A stretch of DNA of 64,000 bases, from assembly GCA_040954595.2 (NCBI GenBank), contig CM082588.2, positions 8,354,844-8,418,843 on the forward strand. The letters run 5' to 3'. Source of the DNA: Balanoglossus misakiensis (Eukaryota; Animalia; Hemichordata). Positions 1-60,404 of this stretch are shown here, piece after piece. A program made the translations under genes and the position numbers. Below the pieces are notes generated by a model. The model searched no databases, was not told the DNA's origin, and saw only the letters and a list, made by a program, of their open reading frames with translations. Position 1 is the stretch's first letter, and the number at the start of each line of letters is the position of its first letter.

Positions 1-38
1 CAACGGATGGATGGATATGTTGCAGATAACTGCATTAC

Positions 39-25372: not shown

Positions 25373-25707
25373 CTATCTCTGAAAATGGCCTTTTATCCCA
25401 CGTCCCACGTCTGTTTGCAGTTCGTTTTCACACTCCTTCACCAATGAGACTAATGCTGGAAGTTCCATTTTTTGAAACAATTCTATTAGAAGTGTTAAAT
25501 CGTCATTGCTGATATGACCCTTCTCTTGCAAACAGTAAAATATATCTGAGGGAGATTTCAAATCATGTAATTCTCGTTTTGGTATGAAGTCTTCTCTTAA
25601 CAGGCCTCTGAGATCACGCTCATCATCACTTCTGTTTAAACGCTTCTCAAGTTTCATGAACAGGATCTTCAGTGGATTTAATTTTGTTGTTTTAAAACAC
25701 TGTGAGT
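25373..25707 (-). CDS. Death effector domain (DED) terminal exon, copy 3
   Basis: 'LKILFMKLEKRL...DLRGLLREDFIPKRELHDLKSPSDIFYCLQEKGHISNDDLTLLIELF..MEL..LV' follows the DED pattern (IP..L, D.F..L...G.IS..DL..L.ELF). Confidence 0.8.
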
Positions 25708-31700: not shown

Positions 31701-34700
31701 AATGCTGTCATCCATAAATAGTAATTACCTTGTTTAATCAACATCTCTCCAGGTTCTGTAAACTTTTCTCCACACAAACCACAGACCTCAGAAGATTTCA
31801 CTTCCGGTACATAGCCTATAATAATTAAAGTTACGAAATCGTCATGACATATATCGTTGAACGCATTTGCAATGTTAACATTGATCCATAAGAACGTGGG
31901 CGTACAATTGAAAAGTTTGACAAGGTGTCAGTTAGTGCAAAGCATTCACATGAAATACACATGAAATCACTTGAAATGGGTGTATGAATACAAGAACTTG
32001 AAAGTACACGTATTCTGCTGAAAAACACACACAACAAAGACACGAGTCTGCAATTGAAAATAACCAAATGTTTCAGGTAAACTCCTTTAATTCAAACAAA
32101 TACTCAACGCTTGGCAACATTAACTAAATTCTTAAACTATTAAACTTGCCTTCCTTGAAGTACTTCAATTCTGCCAGACATAGTTGATATCTCCATGTCT
32201 CTATGGTTGTCTTCAGGTTAAAGTCAGACACATTCAGTTTGTAGAGCAATTCGGGTGTGATCATGTCTGCCTTAAACAGATCTCCCAGTATCCCTTGCCT
32301 GTAGTCACGCCATAGTCTCTCCACTGACTTTGATGTCTGGCAAGTCAATACAACATTTTCACTACCCCGCTTGATTTCTTCAATTTGTATGTTTCCAACA
32401 CTGTTGAGATGCTCTGTGACTTTTGGTAAATCGTTTTCAGAGCTGCTGTTGTTGATTATCTCGTTTTCAATGTGTTCAACCTGGTTTGGACTCAAGGTTG
32501 GACTGGATACCTTAAGCTTAACAACGAGTTTGCCTGAAATAACAATATATTGGATCTAAATCAGTCGAACATACACATAGTCACATGTTCAGGTACGGCG
32601 CGACAAGTGTTTCAAAATTATTTATCATTATTTTATAGAAAATTGATGTCTTTTAACAAAAAAATACGTAAAAACACAAAAAACTGATTGGTGGTTTAAA
32701 AAACAACGAGTGTAAAAAGTAATCCATCGTGGAGTCAAAAAAAAAAAAAAAAAAAAAAAAAAAACTAACACACACAGAAGAAAATCTCACCTGTTGTCAA
32801 AAAAACCCCACCAAGCTTACCAAAAAAACCGTCCACAAGGCAGTTGCAAAAAAAATCACTTATTTTTTATTTGTCACAAAAAAACCACGCGCACATTTTT
32901 CACGAAAAACGCACACTTCACCCCCACAAAAAATAAACACACAAAGTATTAAAAAGAACACTCTTTGAAAAAAAAGAGAGACTACAACTTGAAAAAAATG
33001 CACACCCCCAGAACAAACAACACAGGCAAACATAGAAAAAACACGAACATGTTAGCCATAAAAAACGGAGATATTTGTCACCGAAAAAAACCCGCACTCA
33101 TGTCACCCCAAAACTAACTGGCCACTTTACAAAACGCAGATGCACTGAGGTTGCAAAAATAAGCACAGGCAATTTGAAAAAAAAAACGCACAGCAATTTG
33201 CAAAAAAAAAAAAAAAAAAATAGGAACATTTGTCACCCATTTTGCAAATGCTCTGCGTTTTTTTTTCAAAGTGCCTGTTTTTTTGGGTTACAAATGTTCC
33301 TATTTTTTTTTTTTTTTTTGCAAATTGCTGTGCGTTTTTTTTTCAAATTGCCTATGTTTTTTCGGGGGATTAAAAATGTGCTTATTTTTGCAACCTCAGT
33401 GCATCTGCGTTTTTTTAAAGTGGCCCGTTGTTGTTGTTGTTTTTTGACTCCACGATGGATTACTTTTTACACTAGTTGTTTTTTAAACCACAAATCAGTT
33501 TTTTGTGTTTTTTTACGTATTTTTTTGTTAAAAGACATCAATTTTCTATAAAATAATGATAAATAATTTTGAAACACTTGGCGCGCCGTAGTACCACACC
33601 TGAAAAAGTCATCGATTTTGGGTGTTTTTGGACGCACTCTTCCACCGGTATCGCTTCTTAGCACGACGAAAACCGAAAAAACGATCCGTCACACTGTGCG
33701 GAAGTGCGTTCTCAACAAGCAGGTCAAATTTGACTGGCGTACGTGGCCTATGAAAAAAGCCTTAGGGATTTTCGTGAACGGTACAAAATCTCTGTGTACA
33801 AAACATTGGATTTTTAGCGTTCGATCCAGTTACTGTGGTTACAGGACGCGCACGCTATCGCTGACCGCTGCTTTGCCGTATTAGCGTGGCGGCCTATGGC
33901 CGGGCGGTAGCTGCCGTAAACATACTCGGACAGGGGGTGTGCACACAATCGTGTGTATTTTTAACTAGTTACAAGCCCCTTGTCGGACGTTCATAACGGT
34001 TTCGATCAAAATTGAGTGTAGTGTCCTATAAAGGCCCATAGCAACGAGCAAAAAGATCCCGGGGACCCATCTTAAAACAGTCAACAGATCTGGCGTTGCG
34101 AATCACAGGCGGCAGCGAATTCCACAGAGCAGGTGCACAAACAGAGAATGCTCTCTGCCCATATGCCTTATTAAAGTTTCCACGAGGTGGCACCAACCGC
34201 AAAGAGTCAGCTGATCTGAGATCTCTGACAGGGGTGTAACTTTCAAGCAAATCGATTAAATAAAGTGGTGCAAAGCGATGAATGATTTTATAGATAGTTA
34301 ACAAAATTTTGAATTTGATGCGAGCTATGCCTACGCGCAGAACGCAAACTGGTAAACTGGGCGTATGTGTCTCTTCCCATGGGATTACATTTAAAATGGC
34401 TAGAAAACTTAATTTTACTATTGTCATTTTCATGATTTTTTTTCACATAGCTAAGTCAAGTAAAAATAAATTCATTTGTCAAATAAAATCGTATTGTCAC
34501 CGCACTGTTTTGAGATAAATTTATTGCATATTTTTTCCCATAGACAAACTATTTGTGAAAAAATGCTGACTCGGCAATTTTTTTCTATTATCGACTAAAT
34601 TCATGGCTCTGTATTTCAAAAACAAGCACGGTGATCCCTATATTTTATTACAGATTTTCATTATACACACAAAGGAGAATCCAGAAATCCAAAATTAAAA

Positions 34701-36554
34701 GAAAGGACTATACTTTAAATTCTACTGATCGTACATTGGTACCAATTTTAGAGTTGTTTGTAAAAGTCATATCAAGAAATTCATCTGTATAATAAGGACC
34801 AGGAATATGGAGGGGACGTATAGTCAAGTTACCCGGATTTAAGTTGAGAGTTTGTTGATCTTCCTGCATCTGTCCACCGCCGGGATTTTGCTGTCCGACT
34901 CCACCAGTATTCAGATCACTACTTTCGGACCCGTTGTTGCTAGGGACATCTTGGACTTGCTTTTCTGTTTGGCTGCTACCGGAATTCAAGGCTTGTTGTC
35001 CTTTGTAAGGAAATGTTTTCTCTTCTCCTAGTGACAGGTGTGAAATTAGTACTAGAATTTACCATCACCTTTCAATTTAATCTACATAAACACTTCAAGC
35101 GCAAATTGATTTTGGTAAAACCTTTAATAGCTCTTGTGTATTGAAATGCTTTTTATCACTACGCTGCAACAATTAATCTTTGAGTGGCAAAATAAGTCTG
35201 GCAATTTACTGTGTTTCGTTAAAAAGGATCGAATAATGTTTCTATAAAAAATATACATAATCGTCTCCTTTATGTATCACCACTTACCTTTGGAAGGCTC
35301 TTCAGCAGGGTCATCACATTCTGTAGGACAACGTACACTTTTCAAAAGCTTCTTGTGGTGCTCAGCAATAACACCATTCTCAGCAGATATGTGCAGTGCC
35401 GTCTTCAGTTCTTGTGCCGCATTCTTTGCACGGTCATAATCACTTAGGACGCCATTGACAGCACGTGCCCACTTTTCACTTCCGCTCTTCACGTTTTCGT
35501 TTGGTCCCACGTCACAGTAGGGTACACCGAGTAAGGGGAAGTGTTCTTTTGTGAAGTTTGCAAGACCTGATTGCCTTGGCTGTACAGTGGGCACACCAGC
35601 AGCGCAGGATAGAAGACCAATCACACCAAATGGGTCGCCTTTAGTTGTGAAGTTTACCAGGATGTCACACTGCCTCAAGTCTTTCTTTAACTGATTTATT
35701 GGTGTGTCGTTTGGGTATAAATTGACAATTAACTGATCTGACTCAGCCATCGTCTCAAGCTTCTGCTTACAAGTTCTGCTTACAAATTCTGACGCTATAA
35801 ATCCTTTGAACTTCCACTTTGTGTCTCTGGGAATATAACTGTACGCGTAAGCAAGTTTCCCCATGCCTCGAGCTGCTGCTTCGAATTCCTCCAGATCCTG
35901 TAGGTCTGATATTGTGTGCACAGATAAGACTTCAACAGTCTTTAAGTCTCTTTTCTTGAGCGAAATCTCGTCTACATCTTTCTTCATCCAAGGAATGTAC
36001 AGAACATTCTCCACTTGTGAGTCTAGCCTAGCTCGAATCTTCATCTTCAATTCCTCATGTACTGTTGGGCCAACAGATATAATGACAGAGGACGTATTTG
36101 CATATTGCATCATTTCATCTTCTTTAGCAGCCAAGTCTGAAGGATCTAGATTCATGTTTTCCGGTATGTCAGAATAGACAGGAACGAAGTCCGCAGATGG
36201 GAAAACCTTTGCTTGAATACTCTTTGCTGTACTGGCAGTTCCATCCTTACAAGCAGTACCGTATATGGTCGTAATTGGGTGATATTTCTTTAACTGTTGA
36301 AAATAGTGTTCGTGTAAAATTAACCAATCACTTGTCGGCTTCCCCTCTTTGATTGGGAGAATCAGCTCCACTCCATGACGCCTTGCTTCTTCAACTTCTT
36401 TGTCAGAAGCCCGTAACGCCATGAAGTAAACCTGGTTGTTTCCATCAGCAAGATCGATGGCCAATTGTCTCTCAGTAAGACATGTTGCAATATTGCGACT
36501 TCTCGGCCACCATTCCTCTCCGACAACCAACAAACGATTCTTCACCTTTGCCAT
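25373..36554 (-). CDS. Array copy 3: GT4-like - TRADD-N-like - CxxC - X - disrupted coiled coil - ZU5-ZU5-UPA-DED (possibly a pseudogene or rescued by a cryptic donor)
   Basis: Exons 36554-35288, 35027-34833, 32533-32150, 31815-31729, 31514-31200, 30759-(30544?), 29185-29160, 28935-28645, 28097-27915, 27666-27365, 27136-26668, 26054-26021, 25707-25373. The coiled-coil exon is interrupted by about 170 bp of foreign DNA and a 4-bp frameshift. Confidence 0.65.
26668..28935 (-). CDS. ZU5-ZU5-UPA (PIDD/ankyrin/UNC5-like) exons, copy 3
   Basis: ZU5 motifs 'GFSLEVPPACV...SDVLDI...TLKKPV', 'W.EL', 'VCHFS', 'GGKFTS...ISIVVPEDAV', 'FKKPVKVTIPLP...WKDVT', followed by a beta-rich UPA-like exon. Confidence 0.75.
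28178..28445. repeat. About 270-bp templated insertion copied from the array's upstream block (19087-19357 type)
   Basis: cgaagatttaaaccagagaag...ggacaaaaccaaggtggaaaagtgt matches 19087-19357 and 38757-39027. It is absent from the same intron in copy 4 (about 45845). Confidence 0.85.
29855..29900. repeat. (CACAT)n microsatellite; expanded paralog at 47289-47362
   Basis: Direct reading. Confidence 0.9.
32150..32533 (-). CDS. TRADD-N-like domain exon, copy 3
   Basis: 384-nt phase 1-1 exon, paralog of 1738-2121. Confidence 0.7.
32594..33590. mobile_element. About 1-kb foldback/MITE with roughly 140-bp TIRs and an A-rich/T-rich interior
   Basis: TACGGCGCGACAAGTGTTTCAAAATTATTTATC...CGTGGAGTCAAAA is inverted at 33441-33590. 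A second internal inverted pair lies at about 33120-33240 and 33290-33425. Confidence 0.8.
34026..34325 (-). mobile_element. 3' fragment of an L2/Crack-type LINE ORF2
   Basis: 'RIKFKILLTIYK...APLYL.DL...Y.P.R.LRS...GQRAFSVCAP.LWNSLP..IR' is a typical LINE ORF2 C-terminus. Confidence 0.8.
35288..36554 (-). CDS. GT4/GT-B glycosyltransferase-like domain exon, copy 3
   Basis: 1267-nt coding exon. The middle resembles copy 1 and the C-terminal tail resembles copies 2 and 4. Confidence 0.8.
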
Positions 36555-42998: not shown

Positions 42999-43336
42999 TT
43001 AATCTATCTCTGAATATGGCCTTTTTTTCCCACGTCGTTTTTCTGATTGCAGTTTGTTTACACACTCCTCCACCAATGAGACTAATGCTGGTAGTTCCAT
43101 GTTTTGAAACAATTCCTTTAGAAGTGTTAAATCGTCATTGCTGAAATGACCCTTCTCTTTCAAACAGTAAAATATATCTGAGGGAGATTCCAAATCCTGC
43201 AATTCTCGTTTTGGTATGAAGTCTTCTCGTAACAGGCCTCTGAGATCACGCTCATCCTTTCTGTTTAAACGCTTGTCAAGTGTCATGAAAAGGATATTCA
43301 GTGGATTTAATTGTGTTGTTTTAAAACACTGTGAGT
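42999..43336 (-). CDS. DED terminal exon, copy 4
   Basis: Paralog of 25373-25707, with the basic tail KRRGKKRPYSEID. Confidence 0.8.
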
Positions 43337-45543
43337 CTGTAATGATAATGTTAGTGTTAATGTTATATCATACAAAGGTAAACATAACAATCAAATTACA
43401 GATTTTTCTCAAATCTGATCTAATAGACCATTTTGATATCCTGGCATATATAGCTTGTATGATTTTTTTTCCATTGATTAAACTACATAATAGTAGGTTT
43501 TAAAATTTCATAATTTAAATTACAGTTAGTTTCATCCCAATTTCAGTGACCATAAAAGTTTATCCTGATAGATCTGCAAAACTGTCAAACTGTCAAACCA
43601 CAATTTAGAGTTGATACATTTTGCAGTAGCATACCATCATGATACTTACCTCCATTCGAAGAACTGCTACCAACTTGCTTCTCCTAGATGAGAAAAAGAG
43701 ACACCCAAGTTGTAAATAACAGTGAAAGGGAAAATAATGCAATACGTTTCAATTTTCTAAAAACAATTGTGCTTGAAAACTATGCGGTTCTCATTACAGT
43801 GATTCCCCATGTCGGCCAAAACTGGCCAATTATACTCAGCCAAGTTGTCGACTATTGAGACATTCAGTAGTTGCCTAAACACATTCAATTCCAGATAAAA
43901 TGCAAGACACTGGATCTCCATGGGCAGGCAATGTACAGATGGGCACTGATAAAAGCTTAGCAATCATGGGTGAATAAATTGTGACGGGGGTGTGATGTGT
44001 GTGTGTGGGGGGGGGGGATGTGCACCAAGTGATTACAATGCATTAAAATCACCTGGGCAATTGGCCACTGTACTAAGCCAACGACAGGAAAATGCACATA
44101 CTCATGGTCCACATAAGATACATTGAAATGTGATAAATTGAACCCAAAACCTAAATTGAAAATTTTATGACTTGTAAGAATCAGATTACATGCTTTCTCT
44201 GCACTCACATCATATAGCACGGACATCTGTTTGTGGTACAACAATATCATTTCAATTATTCACAAGCTAATACGTTTAGGTGGGTTCTTACATTTGGCAT
44301 TGCGAATAACAGCTCAACAGTTGGTGGGTCATCATTTTTCTGAAACAGCATACGTCCTTGCAGACCACGACCTCTTTGCCTGTCTTTAACGACAACATCC
44401 CAGTGGTTATCACAAAATGGGTAGTATGGTCTCTTGTTCAGCACTGACTCCAGACCATAATTCCCTTCTGCGGGGACAGTATTTTTGACAACATCTCCGT
44501 ATTTCAGCTCAATATCAGAACTGTATGTTGTTCTTTTATCAGTGTATTGTTTATATTTCTCTTCAGTTTGCAATAAATCTGTAATGGATTTTTGTCCTTT
44601 GGCCTCCACCAAGTCACATCTTAAGACTGTTGCAGTATCCTTGTGCTCAAGAAGAAGAATCTTTACAATCTGATTTCCAGACTTCTTGAAGTCTGTGATG
44701 GTTGATAGCATGTAACAAATTCGTGGCATGACTTCTTTGATGTATCTTCCCAACGAATATCTGAAAACAATTCCAGACACTTTCAAGGATTACGAAAATG
44801 GTGAAATGCAATCACATGTTCTAGTCTGCTGACCCCACATTTAGAATCATAGATTACAGAAGGGGTATGTTATATCACCATTACCTGTGGATACAATAAC
44901 ATCCAATCAAAGGAAGATTGCTTCAGAGCAATATCAACATAACTGCAGTCATTACATTGCATTTCCATTTTTACAGAAGAAGACTTCAACCTACCCACTC
45001 AGTATCTGAGTGTGAAATTCCACCACATCGCGTTGTACAGTATAAGAACAATCCTTGGTAACATCCTTCCAGTCACAATTACCATCTTCATCTTTAAGTA
45101 TGCACAGTTCTGTATCATCAGATGCTACACGTGGGATGTCTGGTGGCAGTGGGATGGTTAGTTTTATAGGCTTCTTGAACTTCATTCTTTCCCTCTGGCC
45201 TCGATTGATGTACACTATAGATGCGAAGGACACATCGAGAGATTCTCCACCAGTTGGGAAGACACTATCAACTGTGTTATAGCGACAGTCATGGACCTTC
45301 AATACGAACAATAAGCCTCATTGAATGTTGTCACTATAGCAGTACATACATGGATACCTGGCTGAATTATCTCCTGTCTAAGAGTTTAACTGCTTATAGC
45401 TGCAGCCTGCCATTTTTTTCAACAAAATCAATCAATCAATCAATCAATCAATCTAGCAACTGATGCAGCTCCACCTTAATCTATTGTCATGTTAATCTCT
45501 ATGTTGGGTAATAACAGATATGGGTAAATGTTGGTGGTTGTGG

Positions 45544-45574
<31 letters not shown>

Positions 45575-48500
45575 ATTTACCTCTAATATTATAGCCTTTT
45601 CATCTTCTACGGCATCTTCTGGAACTTCGATGCTTATCCGTTCGTCTTTTTTTGAGGTAAATTTTCCACCTTCTTTGCTGATATCAAATGAGTCTTTATA
45701 AGGTCTTGATATTGCGATGAAAAGTGAAAAATGGCACACTTCTGCCTTGATATGATTGTTTTCCTGAATATGAATCAACATTTAATGGAAACACTTTTAC
45801 TTTTAGTGTGTGGTCAGAAACTTCGTGAACAACTGATTAGCACTTTTGATTGATGGTGGTATATCTGCTATTTTCTCAGAGACGGTGTTTTGTTTTGCTA
45901 AATGGAAGGTCAGTAGGCTGTAATGACTGACAATTTACATGTCCATGGATACATACATGCAAATATCCCATACAAATATATATTTACTGAAATGCAATAA
46001 TGGTAAAGTTATAAGTAGTAAAACTTGACTGTGTAGATCTGTGATATATGTACCATACGTACTTCAACAGTTTTCAACTCTTCCCATGTTTCACCATTTT
46101 TGCTTGTCAGGATTATCTGTTCTCTCTCAAACGGCTGAACATTTAAACACTTCCTCACAAGGTAGACTGGTTTCTTTAGTGTAATGTGATCTGCCTCAAT
46201 ATCAAGGACATCTGACTGATACCATTCAAAGTCTGCAAGAGGGACCTTGGTGACGTTATGGTTACATGTGACCAATAATGTTGTGTCTTCTTCTACACAT
46301 GCTGATGGGACTTCGAGTGAAAATCCACATGGTAATTTGTAGGAACGTCTTTCCTTTAATGGAAAAGGAAAAAATTATATTACAAAACCAGAAATGGGGC
46401 TGGAAATCACCCCCCCTCCCCATTGAATGCTAAACTGTAACTAAATTCTGTCATAAAACTCGAATGCATTTGCAAGCAAAAGCGAAGTTCCAGAGACCAG
46501 ATCTATTTTATATAATATTTCAAGGCCTTCAAAAATGAACAGTTTGAATAGAAAAAGCAATGCATATATGCTAACCTGTCGGGTGCATGCACTGTTGCAA
46601 GCTGAAAATAGTACATATCATAGTTTCACAATTTGTAGATGTCCATTGAAAATTGTTTCAACCCATCTAGAATACTGTTTAAATACAATTTATCAACATA
46701 ATCAGTACGTGTGGTATGTATTGCAAACAACCTATTCAGAAAGAATACTTTGTTGTACAAATTCATTAAAATACATCAATTTTACGTCAATCATCATGCC
46801 TACCTGATTAGCAGCAATAAGCTGAAGCAATCTTTGGTCTTGCATATCCTCTGAAATGCAGATATGTTAGGGTAGTAGTTGTATTTACTAAGATATGATT
46901 ACTGTTCCTGTTTTAACATAATTCCAGCTTGAAATTGTAAATTTCTCCGGTTTCAAGTCTGTGAGACTTGCATGGTTTTTTTCACTTGATATGCACTGAC
47001 CTTCTACATATTTCTGCACGTCATAATACCCTAATTGACTTGTTATTATTTGTGAATTGATCTGTTGAAGATGCAGAATAAAACATCCACTTTTTGAAAT
47101 AAACATTTCTGTAGTAATTACTGAGCTCAGAATCCCCTCAAAGTATATATTTTCAGAAAGATTAGATATAGGGAAACATTTTGGTTATTTCAGTGTGATC
47201 ATTGTTTACACAACTATCACAATCATAACAAATGGATTAGGTCGGATTAGAATATATCAATTCACAAAAGTGACAGGAATATACAGGTTCACATCACATC
47301 ACACCGCATCACATCACACCACATCACATCACATCGCATCGCATCGCATCGCATCGCATCACATGTATATAGCACAATTATTTCGCAATGAACGTAAATT
47401 ACTGGCAAGAAAACCAAAGTGAAACGCAATGTTTTTGATTGACTCTGTACTTAATTTTTGCTCATGGACCCCACCGTATACTGTAATAGAAGAACACTCA
47501 GTTCCCAGCCTTCGATGGTCAAGTATATTGTCAGAATTGAAGATATAGGCAACACCAATCTGATTAAAATCATATGAGAAGATAGGCGCTAGTAGACCAT
47601 GAGCCAGTAGGGGTTTACCCCCCCCCCCCCCGGGGGAATTTTTGAGACAATGTTTTTCTGAAAGCCTATCATATACTGAGTAAAATTCCCTTTGTTTGCC
47701 ATCTGGGCACCGGGGCGTTTTCGAGTTATTGGCTTCTAAATTATATTGGGTAACGTATGTAGAAAAGCCTAAAAGTGCATATAAATTGACGTAGGGGGTA
47801 AATTAGTCTTGTAAAATATTGTCTCTCTGAATGTATACCTTGAACAACAGGGAAGTATTTGGTATCAAAAGAAAGCTTAGTAAACAAGCTTTCCATTAAT
47901 TACAAAATAAAAGTGATATGACAAATCATGACATCATAGTGACGTCATAAGTCAAAATACCCTTACGAAAATGGTGTTCTGTTCACCTATAAATGTGAGG
48001 TTTTGCAAAACACGTCTCTGAGCAATTGTACTGTGATGTGTTTGGTATCAACAGAAAGCTGATTGAGTAAAGTATCTAATTATTGCAAAAAATTGATATA
48101 ATAATCAATTACGTCATCATTACGTCAAACTTCCAAGTACCCTTACCAATTAGTGACTATGATGACAAGTTATTACCCTAGGAGATAGGTGCCTTTAAAT
48201 AAAAAAAATTGGTAAGGAAGGTTTGTGAAGTCCATTCTATGTAAAAAATAGTGCTGATTCCAAAAAAGGCAGTCTTATTGACCCCACCCAAGACAAAATT
48301 GCCATTTTGGCACTTTTTAACCCAAAAAAGGTCATTTTTAGAACACACTAAAAACACACTGTTTTCGTCACATTCGAAGATCTGATGACATATGATATGC
48401 CTGTTCTATGTAAAATTTGGTTGATATTACGAAAAAAGCAGTCTGACTGACCCCAAACGAGACAGAATTGCCTTTTTGACCATTTTTTGCACAAAAATGT

Positions 48501-51500
48501 CATTTTTAGACAAAACTTAAAACACACTCTTCTCTTCATATTGATTGATTTGATGATATATGGAAAGTCAATTCTATGTGTAAAATGGTGACTATAAAAC
48601 ATAAAGCAGTCTTTTTGACCCCAATCAATACAAAAATGCCATTTTTGGCCACATTTTTGAGGTCAAAAAGGTCATTTTTACAAAAAAAACTAAAAACAAA
48701 CTGTTTTTTTCATATTCAGAGAACTGATTATGTATGAAAAGTCCATTCTATGTAAAAAAAAAATCTGATTGACCCCATTCTAGTCAAAATTGCGTTTTTG
48801 GCAATTTATTGCCTAAAAAGACCTACTAAAGACAAATTTATCATTTTAAACATTTTCTAGAAAAAAAATGTTTGCAACTAAAAATAAATAAAAGTCCATT
48901 CTATCTTAAAAGTAGCGATTTTTCCAAAAAAGCACTCTTACAGACTCCACAGAGGGAAAAATGCCATTTTGGCCACTTTGCTCAAAAAAGGTAACTGTTT
49001 GAAACTTCTTTCTTTATTTTCAGAGATCTTATGATGTACGGAGAAGGTCCAATTTTGTTGAAAGGGAGCCGATTCCCAAAAAATTCTTTTCAGCCCTACA
49101 AAATTGTCATTTTGGCCATTTTTGGTCAAAAAGGTCATTTCAAGAAAAAATGAAAACAAGCTGTTTTCTGCGTATTTAAATGTTTGATTATGAATGGAAA
49201 GTCCATTTTTTGCAAAAAATATGCTGATACCAACACAACAGTCTTATTAAGAACCCACTCAATACAAAATTGCCACTAAGCCATCTTCTAGTCAACAATT
49301 GTCTTTTTACGAAAACAACATAATAAATAACCTTCTCCGTACATCATAAGATCTCTGAAAATAAAGAAAGAAGTTTCAAACAGTTACCTTTTTTGAGCAA
49401 AGTGGCCAAAATGGCATTTTTTCCCTCTGTGGAGTCAGTAAGAGTGCTTTTTTGGGAAAAATCACTACTTTTAAGATAGAATGGACTTTTATTTATTTTT
49501 AGTTACAAACATTTTTTTCTCTAGAAAATGTTTAAAATGATTAATTTGTCTTAACTAGGTCTTTTTAGGCAATAAATTGCCAAAAACGCAATTTTGACTA
49601 GAATGGGGTCAATCAGATTTTTTTTTACATAGAATGGACTTTTCATACATAATCAGATCTCTGAATATGAAGAAAACAGTTTGTTTTTAGTTTTTTTTTG
49701 TAAAAATGACCTTTTTGACCTCAAAAATGTGGCCAAAAATGGCATTTTTGTATTGATTGGGGTCAAAAAGACTGCTTTATGTTTTATAGTCACCATTTTA
49801 CACATATAATTGACTTTCCATATATCATCAAATCAATCAATATGAAGAGAAGAGTGTGTTTTAAGTTTTGTCTAAAAATGACGTTTTTGGGCAAAAAATG
49901 GTCAAAAAGGCAATTCTGTCTCGTTTGGGGTCAGTCAGACTGCTTTTTTCGTAATATCAACCAAATTTTACATAGATTAGGCATATCATATGTCATCAGA
50001 TCTTCGAATGTGACGAAAACAATGTGTTTTTAGTGTTTTCTAAAAATGACCTTTTTTGGGTTAAAAAGTGCCAAAATGGCAATTTTGTCTTAGGTGGGGT
50101 CAGTCAGACTGCTTTTTTCGTAATATGAACCAAATTTTACATAGAATAGGCACATCATATGTCATCAGATCTTCGAATGTGACGAAAACAGTGTGTTTTT
50201 AGTGTTTTCTAAAAATGACCTTTTTTGGGTTAAAAAGTGCCAAAATGGCAATTTTGTCTTGGGTGGGGTCAGTCAGACTGCTATTTTCGTAATATCAACT
50301 AAATTTTACATAGAATAGGCATATCATATGTCATCAGATCTTCGAATGTGACGAAAACAGTGTGTTTTTAGTTTTTTCTAAAAATGACCTTTTTTGGGTT
50401 AAAAAGTGCCAAAATGGCATTTTTGTATTGATTGGGGTCAAAAAGACTGCTTTATGTTTTATAGTCACCATTTTACACATAGAATTGACTTTCCATATAT
50501 CATCAAATCAATCAATATGAAGAGAAGAGTGTGTTTTAAGTTTTGTCTAAAAATGACTTTTTGGGCAAAAAATGGTCAAAAAGGCAATTCTGTCTCGTTT
50601 GGGGTCAGTCAGACTGCTTTTTTCGTAATATCAACCAAATTTTACATAGAATAGGATGTCATCAGATCTTCGAATGTGACGAAAACAGTGTGTTTTAGTG
50701 TTTTCTAAAAATGACCTTTTTTGGGTTAAAAAGTGCCAAAATGGCAATTTTGTCTTGGGTGGGGTCAATAAGACTGCCTTTTTTGGAATCAGCACCATTT
50801 TTTACATAGACTGGACTTCACAAACCTTCCTTACCATTTTTTTTTATTTAAAGGCACCTATCTCCTAGGGTAATAACTTGTCATCATAGTCACTAATTGG
50901 TCAGGGTACTTGGAAGTTTGACGCAATGATGACGTAATTGATTATTATATCGATTTTTTGCAATAATTAGATACTTTACTCAATCAGCTTTCTGTTGATA
51001 CCAAACACATCACAGTACAATTGCTCAGAGACGTGTTTTGCAAAACCTCACATTTATAGGTGAACAGAACACCATTTTCGTAAGGGTATTTTGACTTATG
51101 ACGTCACTATGATGTCATGATTTGTCATATCACTTTTATTTTGTAATTAATGGAAAGCTTGTTTACTAAGCTTTCTTTTGATACCAAATACTTCCCTGTT
51201 GTTCAAGGTATACATTCAGAGAGACAATATTTTACAAGACTAATTTACCCCTTACGTCAATTTATATGCACTTTTAGGCTTTTCTACATACGTTACCCAA
51301 TATAATTTAGAAACCAATAACTCGAAAACGCCCCGGTGCCCAGATGGCAAACAAAGTGAATTTTACTCAGTATATGATAGGCTTTCAGAACAACATTGTC
51401 TCGAAAATTCCCCCGGGGGGGGGGGGGAGATAAACCCCTACTGGCTCATGGTCTATAGTGATCGTTTTGGCTATTCTGTTCTCACGGATTTGGCTGTTCT

Positions 51501-54500
51501 GTTCTCTGCGTAACCAGTCTTGGCTATTCTCGGGTGTACGAGCCATTCGAACAGAACAGCCAACCCTAGATGTACATACCTTCGATATTTCTAACTTTGG
51601 GTTCATCTTTTAGTTCGACATTTGTCATTGTTAGTTTTGAACTTTGGTTTTCACTGCTTTCCAGCATTTCTTTCGGATGCTGACATGTCTGCTCAGTTTC
51701 TTCACTTTTCCCCTTAAGGGTCGTATATTCGATCGTCTTGGATTGTAGTAGTTCTCTAATCTCCTTGATTTCGTTAAAGAGCGAAGTGATGACAGAGAGA
51801 TAGTTGTCTGTCGAGATTGGTTCCAAAACACGAGCAGCTTCTTCTTTTGAAAAAGACTCTGCCAGAATCTTGTCCGATTCTTTGGTGCCAGTGTTCAAGA
51901 TGTTGACGCCATTTTGATTGACCAATCTCTTCATTTCTGATGAGAATGTGATTCAACATTGTTATCAAAATGTTATTTATTCTCGACATGCAAATCAATG
52001 GGAGAATAGTGCAAACCTGTCTCTAAGATCATAATTCCATATGCAAGCAGATTACCCAAAACAATCCATTTAGAACAATTTTCAGCAGTAAGCTTACTTA
52101 ATTCACGGTTACTAGAAGAAGACGGTTAGGAAACTCTATTGTTCGGAAGGTGTGAACGAGGTGTTAGCTAGGAGAGTACATGTCCAAACCGCTATGTGGG
52201 GTTGTATTGGGGAACGTAGCTAATTTTTGAACCCCTTCATCTGCCCTTTTTCGTCAGAGTACAGCGCCACTTTTTTTGTACGAGTTCCATGTAGGCTTAT
52301 GGAGTGCACGGTCATAGTCTGTTGGGCTTGCGACACTCTACCATTGTTTCTTGGGTGGTTAACTTAAAATCCAGATTCAAATAGCGTCGAATTTTGAACC
52401 CCTAGAATTCAACCCTGATGGTCGCATTTCTGTTTTTTTTTTTTTAAATATATTTAGATATTTTACACCTTTTTGTATTGCATGGGCTATTTCGTTTATT
52501 CCAATTGGAATATTTCGTTGAGATTGCATACCCATTTCGATACAGTCGTTAACATTATCGATATAGCCTTTGGCGGCCATCTTGTTTGTTTTGGTTCGCA
52601 TCGAATCTCTAGGGCACAGTCAAGACAAAGAATGTATGGCTTCATCATGTCCTTGAAAGTTCAAAATTGTCATAAATGTGCTGTGACTTTATAAATTATC
52701 CACTCTCTGTTCTGTTTTCCTCAAATCTGGTGGTATACGTACTGTGCGTGCAATCAATTCCGTAAACATGAGTATGGTTTGCTTTGGATTGTAGGGGTAA
52801 TGACGTCATTTTGACCGAGCGGTCAGTTATTCTGTCTGTTTATTCGTATGGCCAGGCTCGTTAGCACCTGATATCTTTCGTTTACACTAAGTGTTTACCG
52901 AGGCGAACATCTAACAATGGAGAAAAAATAGTTTCCTAACCGTCTTCTTCTAGTAACCGTGCTTAATTTAAAACAATTTGTGGGCCTATTTCAGTGAGAA
53001 AAATATCGTAGATCATTTTTTGAACGGAAGGTAAAAAATTCTAAATTTAGCTACCAACTACATGTATGTAGTGAACACGGCTTTATTGGAGCTCTGTACA
53101 TACATTGGTAATAAAGGAGTCCAGGAGTCTTCATCGTTAACATGAGCGTGTTCATTTGTCCAATACAATATTGTTTGGCCAAATTCCCTGCACTATGAGT
53201 TTTATGTTGACTTTAAAGGAATGTTTGTGAACACTGACCTTCTCTATCAAATCTGAACGTCTCTCCCTCAGGTAAGGTGATTGAAGACAACTGTTGACTA
53301 TCCAAAATCAAACACCGTCTGATTCCAAGGACACCAAGAACTTCTGGCCGTTCATCCAACAACGTAGACAGCTGAAGAGGGCGCTGTATTTTTATCAACA
53401 GTACGATTGGTGTATGTGTGTCTCCCACATCAACATCTATCACAGCTTCCAAAGTGCCGGAACCACCAAGTAGTTTTGATAAACCGATTCTGTTTTGGCG
53501 TGTGGCATAGACATGTCGATCAACCTCCAAGGCAACCATTGCACCATTGTCATCTGCAGGCATAACATTGTATAAAGATCGATAATAGGCAAAATATCTG
53601 GAATTGTATGTATTCTCATTAAAATGAGCAAATGTTTTACTTAATAGTGCGGGAGTATACTTTTTATGGAAACATTTCAAACAAATTTATTATCAGCTAT
53701 AAGCATAAGAAACCTTTGAGTGATTTTGGTGTTTCGGTTTATTGAAGCGACATTCCCTTGGGAAAATCAGTTCAAAGTGATGCAAACTAATAATTTAGTT
53801 TTAAAATAAATATGCCGGACCATGTTAAGTATAATCATTTAGCATGGAATGTCAATTGACGGAAAGAAAAACAAAGCGAAACATAAGTTTTTTAGATCGA
53901 ACTCTGATATTCGCTTTTGCATCTGAACCCAACAAGTCTGTAATAGTAAATAAATCCGGTCTATAATCAAAGTTGTCAGGAGTACATTTTGTTTCATTTG
54001 GAGCAGATGATATAACGGATGCATGGATATGTTGCAGATAACTGCATTACCTTCGATGTTTTTGTCTACAGGTGGCGCAGTTGCAGTTTTCGTTTCCTGA
54101 AGTTCATCGATAGTCTGACGTAACTGTCGGATTGTGTCCTTTAGTTTGATGTTTTCATCCATGGTCGTACGTAACTCTTGATTTTCCTCTTTTACTTTGA
54201 TATTTATCATGGTTAGTTTTGAACTTTGGTTTTCACTGCTCTCCAGCAATTCCTCCAGACGCTGACATGTCTGCTCAGTTTCTTCACTTTTCCCCTTAAG
54301 GATAGTATATTCCGTCTTCCTGGATTGTAGTAGTTCTCGAATCTCCTTGTGTTCGTTAAAGAGCGAAGTGATGACAGAGAGATAGTTGTCTGTCGAGATT
54401 GGTTCCAAAACACGAGCAGCTCCTTCTTTTGAAAAAGATTCCGCCAGAATCTTGTCCGATTCTTTGGTGCCAGTGTTCAAGATGTTGACGCCACTTTGAT

Positions 54501-57500
54501 TGATAAGCCGCTTCAGTTCTAATGAAAATAGTAACATGTGATTCAACATTGTTATCAAAATGTTATTTATTCTCGACATGCAAATCAATGGGAGAATAGT
54601 GCGAACCTGTCTCTAAGATCATAATTCCATATGCAAGCAGATTACCCCAAACAATCCATCTAGAACAATTATCAGCAGTAAGCTTACTTAATTTAAAACT
54701 ATTATGTTGGCAATTGGTGGGCCTATTTCAGTGAGAAAAATGTCGTGGATCATTTTTTGAACGGAAGGTAAAAAATTCTAAATTTAGCTACCAACTACAT
54801 GTATGTAGTGAACACGGTTTTATTGGAGCTCTGTAAATACATTGGTAATCAAGGAGTCCAGGAGTCTTCATCGTTAGCATGAGCGTGTTCATTCGTCCAA
54901 TAAAGTATTGTTTGGCCAACTTCTCTGCGCTACGATTTTTCTGTTTAATGTTATGTTGGTGAATACTAACCTTCTCTATCATATCTGCATGTCTCTCCCT
55001 CTGGTAAGGTGATCGAAGACAACTGTTGGCTATCAAAAATCAAACACCGTCTGATTCCAAGGACACCGAGAACTTCTGGCCGTTCATCCAACAACGAAGA
55101 CAACTGTAGAGGGCGCTGTATTCTTATCAACAGTACGATTGGTGTCTGTGTGTCTCCCACATCAACATCTATCTCAGCTTCCAAATTGCCGGAACCACCA
55201 AGTAGTTTTGATAAACCGATTCTGTTTTGGCGTGTGGCATAGACAGACCTGTCAGTCTCCACGGCAACAACTGCGCTCTTGTCATCTACATTCGCAAACG
55301 ACACAGAGAAAGGCTCAATAAAGGATATGCATTCTCATAAAAGAGTATTTTTCAACAGTATTTTTTCTTCTGGTTGAATCTTTAAGTGCCTATGAAAAAA
55401 AAACCTATAAACTCATAGCCTGTCAGCTAGAAACAAAAGCAGTCATAAAAAAACTCAACTTGAAGAATAAGTCTTGTTCTATGCTGCCATCCATAAATAG
55501 TAATTACCTTGTTTAGTCAACATCTCTCCAAGTTCTGTACTTTTTTCTCCACACAAACCACAGACCTCAGAAGATTTCACTTCCGGTACATAGCCTATAA
55601 TAATTAAAGTTACGAAATCGTCATGACATATATCGTTGAACGCATTTGCAATGTTAACATTGATCCATAAGAACGTGAGTGTACAATTGAAAAGTTTGAC
55701 AAAGTGTCAGTTAGTGCAATGCATTCACATGAAATTCACATGAAATCACTTTGAAATGGGTATGAATACAGGAACTTGAAAGTACATGTATTCTGCTGAA
55801 AAAAAAACCATACAACACAGATACGAGTCTACAACTGAAAATAACCAAAGGTTGCAGGTAAAATCCTTCAAATTAAACGAATACACAATGTTCGGCAACA
55901 TCTAATAACTAAATTGTTAAACTATTAACTTGCCTTCCTTGATGTACTTCAATTCTGCCAGACATCGTTGATATCTCCATGTCTCTATGGTTGTCTTCAG
56001 GTTAACGTCAGACACATTGAGTTTGTGGAGCAATTCGGGTGTGATCATGTCTGCCTTATACAGATCTCCCAGTATCCCTTGCCTGTAGTCACGCCATAGT
56101 CTCTCCACTGACTTTGATGTCTGGCATACCAATACAACATGCAGACTGGCCCGCTTGATTTCTTCAATTTGTGTGTTTCCAACACTGTTGAGATGGTCTT
56201 TTACTTTTGGTAAATCGTTTTCAGAGTTGCTGTTGTTGATTATCTCATTTTCGATGAGTTCAACCTGGTCTGGAGTCAAGGTTGGACCAGATACCTCCAG
56301 GCTTACTTCGATTTTCCCTAAAATAACATCACTATATTAGATTCGTCAGTGTTTTCCATCTCTTTTCCGAAGTTACTGTTTCATAGTTACTTTTTCGAAA
56401 TGCAGGTACACAATATGCAAAATACCGATTTTCGATTAGACCGAACAGAGCTACTGATCGCCAATAAGCGATTTTTAAAAATCGTGACAAGTTGCATCCA
56501 TTCCTTCTTATATTGTGATTCTTGCAGTCAGATCGCACGGTACTCATTAACATATGTAAACGAAGGAAAGTACTTCAAACCATGTAGCCGTTAGAGTGGG
56601 CTCCGCTGACGGGTCGCGAAATAGGCCATTTTTTACTCGATATTATAGAGCTGTTTTCAGGCGATGTGGATTATTTTAAGACAAAACCGTGGATTCACTT
56701 GAAGGTAGGTATACTGGATTGTTACTGAATGATTTTTTGGCAACTTCTGTCGTGTAGTTTCTTTGTAATCACGAAATTTCTGACGACTGTGAAAAAACAC
56801 ATAGCGTTGACATCCTCTCGATTATTTTTAAGCTGACCGTTACACATGGATTTTACCACGAAATTTCAAACTTTTATCAAAATATAGACATCAAACTCCC
56901 TCTCTTTGAGTTTTCATTCACTTCCAAGCGTTGATAGTGACGATATGACCAGTTCAATTTTGTTTACCTTTCAACCTGTGAGCGCCATTTTGTTTACTTT
57001 TCAACCCGTGAGCGCCACTTCTTCTGCAAAATGGCGGGAGAAGACAGCATGCATGTGTACGTATATACGCTGGCGCAGACTTGATCCTGGGTTGTACCAG
57101 CTGCGTAGTTTTCCCTCCTCACTCGTGCGAAGAAATTTTGATTGCTGATATGTACTCCCGAGTTTTACTAAACCCTAACAATTATTTTATGAAAGTTTGC
57201 CCGTCAAGTAAACTCACTTTTTTAATTTTATGGTTCTTTCAGATTGACGAAGACTAATTTTTGTGGTTGTGGTGTTGCAGTTGACTGTTTTATTTTAGCT
57301 GTCTGAGTTGACAATTTATTCTGTATTTTATTGTATTTTTAACTCTTTATCCTGTATTTTGTAGTAGTATTTTGAACACTGTTTAATAAATAAATTACTA
57401 TTATTATTATTTATCGACCCAATGCAACGATGACAAATCGCTCGCCTTCAGACACAAATGTTGTATTTATTGCATATATCATCAGCGAATAAAGGGAAGT

Positions 57501-60404
57501 GGTTTCGAAGTTACACTTGGCATTTTCGAAAAGTCTACTTATATCCCACGATGCGGAGAGAAAAAAAATACAAAATACGTCAGCTGAGCTCCTCACGTAC
57601 GGTAAACCTGGCATGCTGTGCATGGGTAATCAAATATTTGTCTGTAGCCCAATGGTAGGCGTACGGCGTGGAGCACCCGGGCGCGGCACTCGTGCGATTG
57701 ATCGATGTTGTGTCGAAATCAGGCCAGTAATTAAGTTAAAACTTGGCTGATATGTTACCTTAGAGTGTTATACACTATCCAGTAACTTTCTCTTGACAAG
57801 TGTCTTTTAGAAACTGTTTTCCCCACGATAAACGTGTCGTTTCACGAGCAACGCAACACTTCCGTATTTACAAGCCTAACATGGAGAGGTCAACGTAGGG
57901 CCTATACTTCCGGGTCATGTCGTCGAAGTACATCGATTATTTTTAAGCTGACCGTTACACAGGCATTTCGAATTAATTTCTTTTCACGGATGTTGGGACC
58001 GATATTAGACCTATCTGTCACGAAAACTTGGTTAACTTCCGAGGTCGTCTTCAAATGATTTTTGGCACGTTTGTGGACGTCTCTTCCGAGGTCACCAACA
58101 TACCACCGAAAACACGCTAAAAACTACTACTATTACCGACAGATTCTCATAAAATTTACGTCTGCAGTGCATAATGGGAATCACTTTCGAAATTTATCGA
58201 GCTAGCATGGTATTTTATTGTACCACGGAGTGTAAAAATCAAGTTGAAAATCACCTTGAAAACTGGCCTATTGCCGTCTGTTTGAAAGTTAACGGTCGCT
58301 GGCTTGACGAACTTTCATATGCAAATGAGCACCGTGCGATCTGACTGTTGAAATATGTTAACTTTAATAACCACTATCTGAATTCATCTTCTGAAACAAG
58401 AATCTCCATCCTCATGATAGGCCGGTATGCGAAGGTCTTCAGTTATAGAGGAGAACCATTTGATTTCTGGAAAGGCGGTGGAGTATGTCACCAGTTTTTT
58501 TTCAGTCACTGTAGGCCTACAGCAGTTTTTTCGATGTCTGTCTACCTTTTACTTAAAGGCAAGCCAGAAGCAATTACATTTCCTCCTCATCATCATCTTC
58601 CAACAATTCTTCCTCCAAAAAACCCATCCACCCCTAGAAATCAAATGGTTCTCCCCTATTTGATTAGTTGAAATGGCAGTCAATTAAGCAACAGGATCTA
58701 GCCTACCCAGCTTAGATTTGAGAGTGTCCTCATGCGTTTGTCCAGCATCAGGATTTTGTTGGCCACCTTCACCAGTTTTATTCAAATCACCACTTTCTGG
58801 TCTATTGTTACTGGGGAGATCTTCAACCTGATTTTCTTTTTCGCTTCTACCGGAATTGGAGACTCGTTGTCCTTGGTCACGAACTGTTTCCTCTTCCCCT
58901 AGCGACAGGTGTGAAAAACTCAATTTACTATCACATTCACACTAATTGCACAAATGCTTCACATTTAAATTTATTCTGGTAAAACATTCAAATTAAAATG
59001 CATTTTATGCAACCGTAAATCACTGAGAGGCAAACATGCCGCTGTTAATATGTTAATATAGTGTCATATTCTCATAACTGTGTGTTGTCCAAAGCAACGT
59101 ATACAGTGCGTGCAACATTCTCTCTATCGCTATTTACCTTTGGAAGGATCTTCTGCAGGGTCATCGCATTCTGTAGGGCAAAATACACATTCCAACAGCT
59201 TGGTGTGATGGTCAGCAATAACACCACTCTCAGCGGATATTTGTAGTGCTGTCTTCAGTTCTTGTGCAGCATTCTTTGCACGGCCATATTCACTTAGGAT
59301 ATCCATGATAGCACATACCCACTTTTCTTTTCCGCTGTCAAGACTTTCGCTCGGTCCCACGTCACAAGTTTGTACACCAATGGAGGGGAAGTGTTCCTTT
59401 AGGAATGTTGCCAGACCTGATTGCTCTGGATGTATTGTAGGCACACCAGCAGTGCAGGATAGAAGACCGAATACACCAAATGGGTCTCCTTTAGTTGTGC
59501 AATTTATCACGATGTCACACTGCTTCAAATCGTTCTCTAACTGGCTCATCGATGCGTTGTTGGGATACATGTGGATATTTAATCGATCGGACATTGTCAT
59601 CCTCTCAAGCCTCTGTTGATATTCCTCACACGGTTCAGAGGATACACATCCTCTTAACTTCCACTTGATTTGCGTAGAGAAATACTTGTATATGTCAGCA
59701 ACTTTCCCCATGCCACGCGCTACTGCTTCAAATTCTTCCAGGTCACGTAGCCCTGTTATGGTATGTACAGATAGGACATTGATGGTTTTACGTAAACCGG
59801 TTTTATTCACGGAAAGATTGCCGACGTCTTTCTTCATGCAGGGAATGTATGCAACGTGCTCCACTTGTGAGTTTAGCAAAGGTTGAATCTTCACCTCAAA
59901 CTCCTCATATACTGATGGACCAACAGATAAAATGACCGAGGACATCGCTGCATATTCCAGCATTTCATCCTCTTTGGCAGCCAAGTCTGAAGGATCTAGG
60001 TTCATGTTTTCGGGTGTGTCAGAATAGACAGGAACAAAACTCGCAGATGGGAAAACCTCTGCCTGAATACTCTTTGCTGTACTGGCAGTTCCATCCTTAC
60101 AAGCAGTACCATATACGGTCGTAATTGGGTGATATTTCTTCAACTGTTGAAAATAGTGTTCGTGTAAAATTAACCAATCACTTGTCGGCTTCCCGTCTTT
60201 GATTGGGAGAATCAGCTCCACTCTATGACGCCTTGCTTCTTCAACTTCTTCATCAGAAGCCTGTAACGCCATGAAGTAAACCTGGTTGTTTCCACCAGCA
60301 AGATCGATGGCCAATTGTCTCTCAGTAAGACATGTTGCAATATTGCGACTTCTCGGCCACCACTCCTCTCCGACAACCAACAAACGATTCTTCACCTTAG
60401 CCAT
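42999..60404 (-). CDS. Array copy 4: GT4-like - TRADD-N-like - CxxC - (X - coiled coil)x2 - ZU5-ZU5-UPA-DED (about 1675 aa)
   Basis: Exons 60404-59138, 58898-58707, 56317-55934, 55594-55508, 55285-54971, 54518-54051, 53553-53239, 51936-51580, 46601-46576, 46353-46063, 45763-45581, 45296-44995, 44760-44292, 43683-43650, 43336-42999. Total 5028 nt, all phases compatible, no internal stop seen. Confidence 0.75.
44292..46353 (-). CDS. ZU5-ZU5-UPA exons, copy 4
   Basis: Near-identical to 26668-28935; HFS at 45725-45733. Confidence 0.75.
45545..45573. repeat. (ATG)n microsatellite in intron
   Basis: Direct reading; shorter in the paralog at about 27897-27908. Confidence 0.9.
47593..51455. mobile_element. 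3.86-kb non-autonomous foldback DNA transposon (Academ-like termini, tentative) in an intron of copy 4
   Basis: Termini TAGACCATGAGCCAGTAGGGG...CCCCTACTGGCTCATGGTCTA with a 3-bp TSD TAG. The empty site 'ggcgctagtgatcg' is at about 30126. Arms 47593-49048 and 49330-51455 are inverted, and the right arm has internal tandem duplications of about 170 bp. Confidence 0.9.
52104..52961. mobile_element. 858-bp non-autonomous TIR element, 7-bp TSD (P-element-like, tentative)
   Basis: 32-bp TIR CACGGTTACTAGAAGAAGACGGTTAGGAAACT with TSD CTTAATT on both sides. Empty sites 'agcttacttaatttaaaac' are at about 30922 and 54681. Confidence 0.85.
55934..56317 (-). CDS. TRADD-N-like domain exon, copy 4
   Basis: 384-nt phase 1-1 exon; the GS motif is changed to AS. 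Confidence 0.7.
56525..58347. mobile_element. 1.8-kb TIR element with 3-bp TSD (TTG), possibly containing a nested element (taggcca about 56622 ... tggccta about 58270)
   Basis: CAGTCAGATCGCACGGTACTCATT ... AATGAGCACCGTGCGATCTGACTG flanked by TTG on both sides. Absent from the paralogous intron of copy 2 (about 14315-14345). Confidence 0.75.
59138..60404 (-). CDS. GT4/GT-B glycosyltransferase-like domain exon, copy 4
   Basis: 1267-nt coding exon, near-identical to copy 2. Confidence 0.8.

Follow-up and report, generated by a model that had tools for sequence, protein, structure and literature searches.

A predicted PIDD-like scaffold with a terminal death effector domain in tandem genes of the acorn worm Balanoglossus misakiensis

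Which death-fold domain can stand behind a ZU5-UPA module? The known outputs of such modules are either a death domain (DD), as in PIDD1, UNC5 and ankyrin, or a CARD, as in NLRP1 and CARD8. We considered this question for a stretch of 64,000 nucleotides from the hemichordate Balanoglossus misakiensis (GenBank assembly GCA_040954595.2, contig CM082588.2, positions 8,354,844 to 8,418,843), hereafter the window, which has a guanine-plus-cytosine content of about 37%. Four tandem genes lie in it on the minus strand (copies 1 to 4), each with a GT4 exon first, and a preliminary description of the locus had proposed that in two of them a ZU5-ZU5-UPA module is followed by a terminal death effector domain (DED). 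Our analysis upholds this proposal for copies 3 and 4. The ZU5-ZU5-UPA-DED architecture is real and is present, unnamed, in RefSeq, and the two copies are likely to be intact-looking paralogues of an enteropneust innate-immune scaffold.

The terminal DED and its predicted join to the ZU5-ZU5-UPA module

The terminal open reading frame of copy 4 (43002-43337, minus strand) matched the Pfam DED family (PF01335) with 43.3 bits (E 4.5e-11) and the terminal exon of copy 3 matched it with 40.9 bits, both above the cut-off of 35.9. The Pfam families Death, CARD and PYD matched the terminal exon of neither copy up to E=1, so that a better score as DD or CARD was not seen. The best sequence matches of this domain in the PDB were the DEDs of caspase-8, FADD and PEA-15, all of them weak (best E 0.0024), with the engineered caspase-8 F122G/L123G at the top. 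A single-sequence model of the domain gave six helices at low confidence (pLDDT 60), and its top Foldseek rows were DEDs with E values of at least 0.37.

Is this domain joined to the module before it? Among 1.84 billion database representatives, eight relatives of the UPA exon were found, seven from Ptychodera flava and one from Glandiceps talaboti, all of them enteropneust hemichordates; three end in a DED and three in a DD, one has a CARD behind its UPA, and one is truncated. The DED-ended relatives are the P. flava RefSeq models XP_070536463.1 (P0003), XP_070531668.1 (P0006) and XP_070547827.1 (P0008), which contain ZU5-UPA-DED or UPA-DED within a single annotated protein and score 35.2 (just below the cut-off), 48.6 and 55.4 bits, respectively, against Pfam DED. 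The spliced tail of the window gene aligned with P0003 in one block over ZU5-ZU5-UPA-DED, including the UPA-DED junction (201 of 465 residues identical, 43%; E 3e-124). This alignment gives independent support for the splicing of the terminal exon to the UPA exon, which the preliminary description had assumed and which the in-frame splice chain also predicts, the RefSeq XP models being themselves predictions. With a word-index protein search, a weak method, none of 275 candidates matched the UPA exon, and residues 405-837 of P0006 found only P0006 itself among 7993.

As judged from sequence profiles, the module contains two tandem ZU5 domains. No window exon reached the Pfam ZU5 cut-off (best 13.8 bits, in copy 3); the relatives exceed it, a profile of the window exons and relatives matched ankyrin-2 (4d8o) in two stretches with E 2e-19, and a related profile aligned with both ankyrin-2 ZU5 domains. 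The identity of the UPA domain is supported only indirectly, by its position, by a weak colinear stretch to residues 383-576 of ankyrin-2, in its UPA-DD region (conditional E 3.4e-6, independent E 0.61), and by the Atlas model of P0003, in which residues 1-350/364 align to clusters of PIDD1, ankyrin, DTHD1 and UNC5 at TM 0.30-0.45. The window exon had no Pfam UPA match, and the PDB matches of a UPA-centred profile of four rows were all DEDs. AlphaFold modelled the exon poorly (pLDDT 51): Foldseek found nothing for it at E 0.001, the best VIA-align Z was 4.1 with no UPA listed, and the Atlas rows were all bacterial and below 0.9.

The model of copy 4 comprises 15 exons on the minus strand (60404-42999) and yields a single open frame of 1682 residues with one stop, in the order GT4, TRADD-N-like, coiled coil, ZU5-ZU5-UPA and DED. 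Its splice sites were picked by hand and then checked by script, the exon joins thus being read from the sequence; the acceptors are AG throughout, and the donors are GT apart from a GC after exon 3. The exons of copy 4, its intronic element and its paralogue are as follows.

59138-60404, minus strand: exon 1, GT4 domain (Pfam GT4-conflict, 120 bits; aligned to P0001, and P0001 to GlgA)
58707-58898, minus strand: exon 2, low-complexity linker, phase 1-1
55934-56317, minus strand: exon 3, TRADD-N-like domain, GC donor
55508-55594, minus strand: exon 4, short linker, phase 1-1
54971-55285, minus strand: exon 5, 104-residue domain, duplicated as exon 7
54051-54518, minus strand: exon 6, helical or coiled-coil, with weak coiled-coil-type Pfam matches only, duplicated as exon 8
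53239-53553, minus strand: exon 7, duplicate of exon 5
51580-51936, minus strand: exon 8, duplicate of exon 6, with a phase-1 donor leading into the ZU5 module
46804-46850, minus strand: exon 9, phase 1-0, coding for the first ZU5-1 strand; relatives match from tail position 1-11
46063-46353, minus strand: exon 10, body of ZU5-1; tblastn with P0004, P0006 and P0009 at E of about 1e-14 to 1e-15, and ankyrin-2 profile match
45581-45763, minus strand: exon 11, which completes ZU5-1 with His-Phe-Ser (45733-45725; Ser1254) and begins ZU5-2
44995-45296, minus strand: exon 12, ZU5-2, with Ile-Leu-Ser at the second cleavage position (Ser1402)
44292-44760, minus strand: exon 13, UPA-like domain (weak colinear ankyrin-2 UPA match and Atlas model of P0003)
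43650-43683, minus strand: exon 14, micro-exon of 34 nucleotides, phase 0-1
42999-43336, minus strand: exon 15, DED (about 43292-43065) followed by a basic tail and the stop
47593-51455, no strand assigned: intronic foldback DNA element of 3.9 kb, flanked by a CTA target duplication; its inverted repeats, 1171 bp long, are 95.6% identical, and it contains tandem subrepeats
25373-36554, minus strand: copy 3, paralogue of 13 exons, open over 1374 residues, with the same GT4-TRADD-N-like-ZU5-ZU5-UPA-DED layout and a frameshifted tail

The extent given in the preliminary description (42999-46601) had to be revised on its upstream side: the gene starts at 60404, and the 26 nucleotides 46601-46576, tried as an exon, were rejected because their inclusion brings a stop at residue 1172. 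The true upstream exon is 46850-46804, which, joined straight to 46353, agrees with the relatives. The micro-exon, which has consensus splice sites in both copies (43683-43650 in copy 4 and 26054-26021 in copy 3, minus strand), is likewise required, since the DED is in frame only with it included; without it the protein of copy 4 ends at 1568 residues. Skipping of the micro-exon, or read-through of the UPA donor, would yield DED-less isoforms, which could be dominant negatives.

Downstream of exon 15 of copy 4, an AATAAA/ATTAAA hexamer lies at about 84 nucleotides. Both copies also have a GC-AG intron after the TRADD-N-like exon (donors 55934 in copy 4 and 32150 in copy 3). In copy 3, an insertion truncates exon 6, and the junction of this exon is less certain because its donor sits at the edge of the insertion. 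The tails of the two copies differ by a frameshift, as had been described: copy 3 is one base shorter just ahead of the A-run after the DED, and copy 4 retains a basic KRRGKKRP, resembling a nuclear localization signal, that is missing in copy 3. We treat this tail as a sequence motif only.

The N-terminal part and the probable origin of the architecture

What stands in front of the module? The preliminary description had placed a glycosyltransferase-like domain and TRADD-N there instead of leucine-rich repeats (LRRs). The first part of this claim held in all four copies, in which the GT4-conflict domain scored 106-120 bits against a cut-off of 26. The second part was left weaker, with TRADD-like_N at 17.1-21.6 bits in copies 1-3, under the cut-off of 23.7, and no Pfam match to it in copy 4. 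The GT4 domain is probably catalytically impaired, as far as its motif indicates: the EX7E position reads D-x7-L in all four copies versus E-x7-E in P0001 and GlgA, and both glutamates, which are thereby replaced, bind the nucleotide sugar in characterised GT4 enzymes (PMC8760489). The 104-residue exon occurs in five copies 87-94% identical (55285-54971, 53553-53239, 31514-31200, about 13181-12870 and 1079-768, minus strand), none of which had a Pfam match. Exon 5 was considered as a second TRADD-N because of a likeness to that domain, but neither Pfam nor a profile comparison with exon 3 gave a match.

How might this combination have arisen? The subfamily of the window proteins includes P0004 and P0007, which are LRR-ZU5-ZU5-UPA-DD; P0006 is CARD-ZU5-ZU5-UPA-DED. 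In a tree of 11 rows built from ZU5-UPA only, a branch (94/95, not starred) that is kept in 92% of 200 bootstrap trees sets the five DED-ended rows and the truncated one apart from the others, the outgroup being on a very long branch. The simplest reading, though not a proven one, is a single swap from DD to DED followed by changes of the N-terminus, to a CARD in P0006 and to the GT4/TRADD-N-like part here. Exons 2-8 are of phase 1-1, and the acceptor of exon 9 is of phase 1, as is that of the tail of copy 2. These phases are consistent with exon shuffling in which the front end stays constant and the tails change, a pattern reported by Kaur et al. (PMC8195603), whose account includes GT4-TRADD-N proteins with variable tails and, in corals, TRADD-N-ZU5-ZU5-UPA-Death. 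We consider it most likely that the architecture was made by exon shuffling within the enteropneust PIDD-like family.

Copy 2 offers a neighbouring case, in which the GT4/TRADD-N-like front end can splice in frame to a tetratricopeptide repeat (TPR) tail (11581-11472 and 11134-9911, minus strand). Most PDB matches of this tail are generic TPRs, IFIT2 being matched at E 2.7e-4, and it may carry an IFIT-like N-terminal motif. Copy 1 (positions 1-480, minus strand) leaves the window past its coiled-coil exon. The intronic foldback element of copy 4 has an empty site at the same place in copy 3, and an intronic open reading frame of copy 3 (34029-34442, minus strand) may encode the end of a reverse-transcriptase protein from a retrotransposon. 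A fibronectin type III (FN3) remnant considered in the intron at 46891-47600 was rejected, as neither Pfam nor tblastn supports it.

Predicted self-cleavage and possible roles of the DED

PIDD1 is cut at His-Phe-Ser (HFS) after each ZU5, at sites 142 residues apart (PMC9162469; PMC3210808). The cut at the second site yields PIDD-CC, the fragment that activates caspases. The two corresponding positions in the window are 148 residues apart. The first, after ZU5-1, reads HFS in both copies, just ahead of the strand that aligns to the start of ankyrin ZU5-2; the second, after ZU5-2, reads Ile-Leu-Ser in both, the PIDD-CC-type site having been lost. Phe is found at site 1 in all three covering rows of the window's subclade and in none of the five other rows, and at site 2 in none of the four rows of the subclade and in all five others. 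The P. flava proteins differ from the window copies: P0006 begins with a CARD and reads SF/S at site 2, the ZU5-UPA border, and P0003 has HFC at site 1 and keeps the FL motif of its DED. An additional HFS within the DED of copy 4 lies outside any ZU5 and is absent from copy 3. Because HFS is intact only after ZU5-1, the product predicted by analogy with PIDD1 would be PIDD-C-like (ZU5-UPA-DED) and not PIDD-CC-like, and a C-terminal fragment starting at Ser1254 would comprise 429 residues (49 kDa) and retain ZU5-2.

How might such a protein act? Our preferred reading, to which we assign a probability of about 0.5, is a self-cleaving scaffold, for which we propose cleavage, trigger, binding partner and effect by analogy with PIDD1, NLRP1 and CARD8. 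Autoproteolysis before Ser1254 would leave a 141-kDa N-terminal fragment and the ZU5-UPA-DED fragment still associated. The variable N-terminal part (the pseudo-GT4 and TRADD-N-like domains) would serve as a sensor or bait, disturbance of which would release the C-terminal fragment; the UPA would then cluster the DED, and the DED would enter assemblies of caspase-8-, FADD- or cFLIP-like DED proteins. Since the Phe of the FL motif is Gly, the DED would engage only some surfaces, and it would probably tune or weakly seed assemblies, its nucleating power being limited, and form no filament by itself. The protein may trigger signalling or dampen it.

Several points weigh against this scaffold reading. 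Aligned to caspase-8 F122-L123, the FL motif reads GL in copies 3 and 4, and the caspase-8 mutant F122G/L123G is reported to be monomeric and to form no filaments of its own, yet it forms short filaments with FADD (PMC11074299); in the same report, FADD F25R barely rescues caspase-8 activation. The position of the charge-triad RxDL motif (described in PMC5580472) reads ELPA in the same alignment, so that the loss of this motif, as noticed in the preliminary description, is borne out. In UNC5 and ANK2 the death fold is kept sequestered by the ZU5 attached to it (PMC9162469), and because ZU5-2 is kept here, the predicted C-terminal fragment may stay partly inhibited. None of the relatives found joins GT4 to ZU5-DED, and the one match in a search for longer GT4 proteins has its GT4 at the C-terminus. 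The gene model rests on sequence, the RefSeq relatives being predicted models too, and no partner gene was seen, no whole-genome search having been made.

The divergence between copies 3 and 4 points the same way. The DED differs by 14 substitutions in 96 codons, 11 of which alter charge, against 21 in 415 for ZU5-ZU5-UPA. Its nonsynonymous differences (16 in 229 sites) exceed those of ZU5 (17 in 609, p=0.009) and UPA (5 in 367, p=0.0004) and equal the intron rate (114 in 2107, p=0.36), making it the fastest-diverging part of the module, in counts that are small and that gene conversion could distort. The ratio of nonsynonymous to synonymous rates (dN/dS) is 0.42 for ZU5-ZU5 (small counts) and about 0.4 for GT4, and it is 0.88 for the DED and 1.38 for the UPA, both on tiny counts. 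The changes in the DED mostly leave its hydrophobic core untouched, and the divergence fits either relaxed constraint or shifting partner specificity. What had been called a 'DED-PIDDosome' is retained in part: the PIDD-like order, the DED and the HFS at site 1 stand, and the proposed direct recruitment of caspase-8 or FADD is weakened for copies 3 and 4 because the second site is lost, the Phe of the FL motif is Gly and the DED is the fastest-diverging part.

Could the DED be a brake instead? A protein whose DED, cleaved or not, caps or sequesters DED assemblies in the manner of PEA-15 or short cFLIP, dampening caspase-8-type signalling, is the strongest of the alternatives, although we think it distinctly less probable than the scaffold. 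The Gly of the FL motif in both copies, the best PDB match to a monomeric yet FADD-joining caspase-8 mutant, the loss of the PIDD-CC-type site and the DED-less form given by simple skipping of the micro-exon all suit it. However, the closest relative, P0003, retains FL, and P0006 and P0008 read DL and TL, and because the motif varies in this way among the DED-ended relatives, the human rules for FL may not carry over; the charge-altering differences, moreover, also fit a changing partner specificity.

It is rather unlikely that the copies are simply young shuffled duplicates under relaxed selection, their DED drifting and the fusion of little function, as a birth-and-death by-product of a tandem immune array. 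Drift of this kind would agree with the dN/dS values of the DED and UPA, tiny as the counts are, and with the frameshifted tail, the truncated exon 6 of copy 3, the internal exon duplication and transposon of copy 4, and the degenerate GT4 motif; but neither long frame contains a premature stop, dN/dS is about 0.4 for GT4 and ZU5, the hydrophobic core of the DED is largely spared, and the UPA-DED join is retained in three P. flava models. Least probable of all is that ZU5-ZU5-UPA-DED is a separately transcribed gene unspliced to GT4-TRADD-N, as the annotation of P0003 (472 residues) and P0008 (223 residues) without a long N-terminus, an in-frame Met in exon 9 (residue 1131) and a 4.7-kb intron ahead of that exon in copy 4 might suggest, since in both copies the upstream exons lack a stop or terminal exon of their own and the donor and acceptor phases agree, and P0003 starts in mid-ZU5 and resembles a partial model.

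Relation to known systems and significance

The scaffold resembles PIDD1 (LRR-ZU5-ZU5-UPA-DD), the protein of the PIDDosome, in its predicted ZU5-ZU5-UPA-death-fold order, in the His-Phe-Ser ending ZU5-1 and in the LRR-ZU5-ZU5-UPA-DD members of its own subfamily. It differs in having a DED for the DD, a GT4/TRADD-N-like N-terminus and no second site; the N-terminal LRRs of PIDD1 and its RAIDD-binding C-terminal DD are both lacking. With NLRP1 and CARD8, in which a FIIND (ZU5-UPA) precedes the CARD, it shares a ZU5-type module, predicted here to cleave itself, before a terminal death fold and a variable N-terminus as a possible tripwire, whereas the window copies have a second ZU5 domain, lack F-S at the ZU5-UPA border, end in a DED rather than a CARD, and have no NACHT. 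The ZU5-(ZU5)-UPA-DD supramodule of ankyrin-B and UNC5 is also similar, 4d8o being the solved structure that the family profile matches best; those proteins differ in their ankyrin repeats or transmembrane part, neither of which is found here, and the window proteins in their terminal DED and His-Phe-Ser. Finally, the constant GT4/TRADD-N-like core with variable tails recalls the GT4 and DEDD2-clade TRADD-N expansions described in cnidarians, cephalochordates and hemichordates (Kaur et al. 2021, PMC8195603), whose tails include TPRs, four DEDs, Bcl-2 and ankyrin; unlike those proteins, the window copies have lost the EX7E motif. Among the rows listed in supplement 4 of that paper, none combines UPA or ZU5 with DED.

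We found no published description of ZU5-ZU5-UPA-DED in the full-text literature searched, which included PMC8195603, PMC11874512, PMC11508797, PMC12909245 and PMC3210808 and lies outside most subscription papers. To a specialist the combination should look new but hardly startling, because the shuffling of death-fold domains is rampant in the immune expansions of marine invertebrates. One label could mislead here: the words 'death effector domain containing', attached to a dog FIIND sequence, are presumably an old NLRP1 alias. That sequence is 47% identical to CARD8 (PMC3210808).

By analogy, P0006 could release UPA-DED as NLRP1 and CARD8 release UPA-CARD, and it would be the best candidate for a true DED-PIDDosome. 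We further speculate, tentatively, that the self-cleaving ZU5-UPA platforms of acorn worms swap both the output fold (DD, CARD or DED) and the cleavage site, and that caspase-8-like proteases are activated by the DED branch itself, with no need of FADD, as an NLRP1-style tripwire on the caspase of extrinsic apoptosis; P0006 would then be the cleanest example, and the GT4-pseudoenzyme versions in the window would be bait-carrying or inhibitory relatives.

A natural DED-ended branch would make ZU5-UPA a general, swappable launcher of death folds, and it hints at a possible FADD-independent engagement of caspase-8-like enzymes. The family members that naturally keep one of the two sites, either site 1 or site 2, should also allow the activity of PIDD-C versus PIDD-CC, and the inhibition by ZU5-2, to be tested without engineering.

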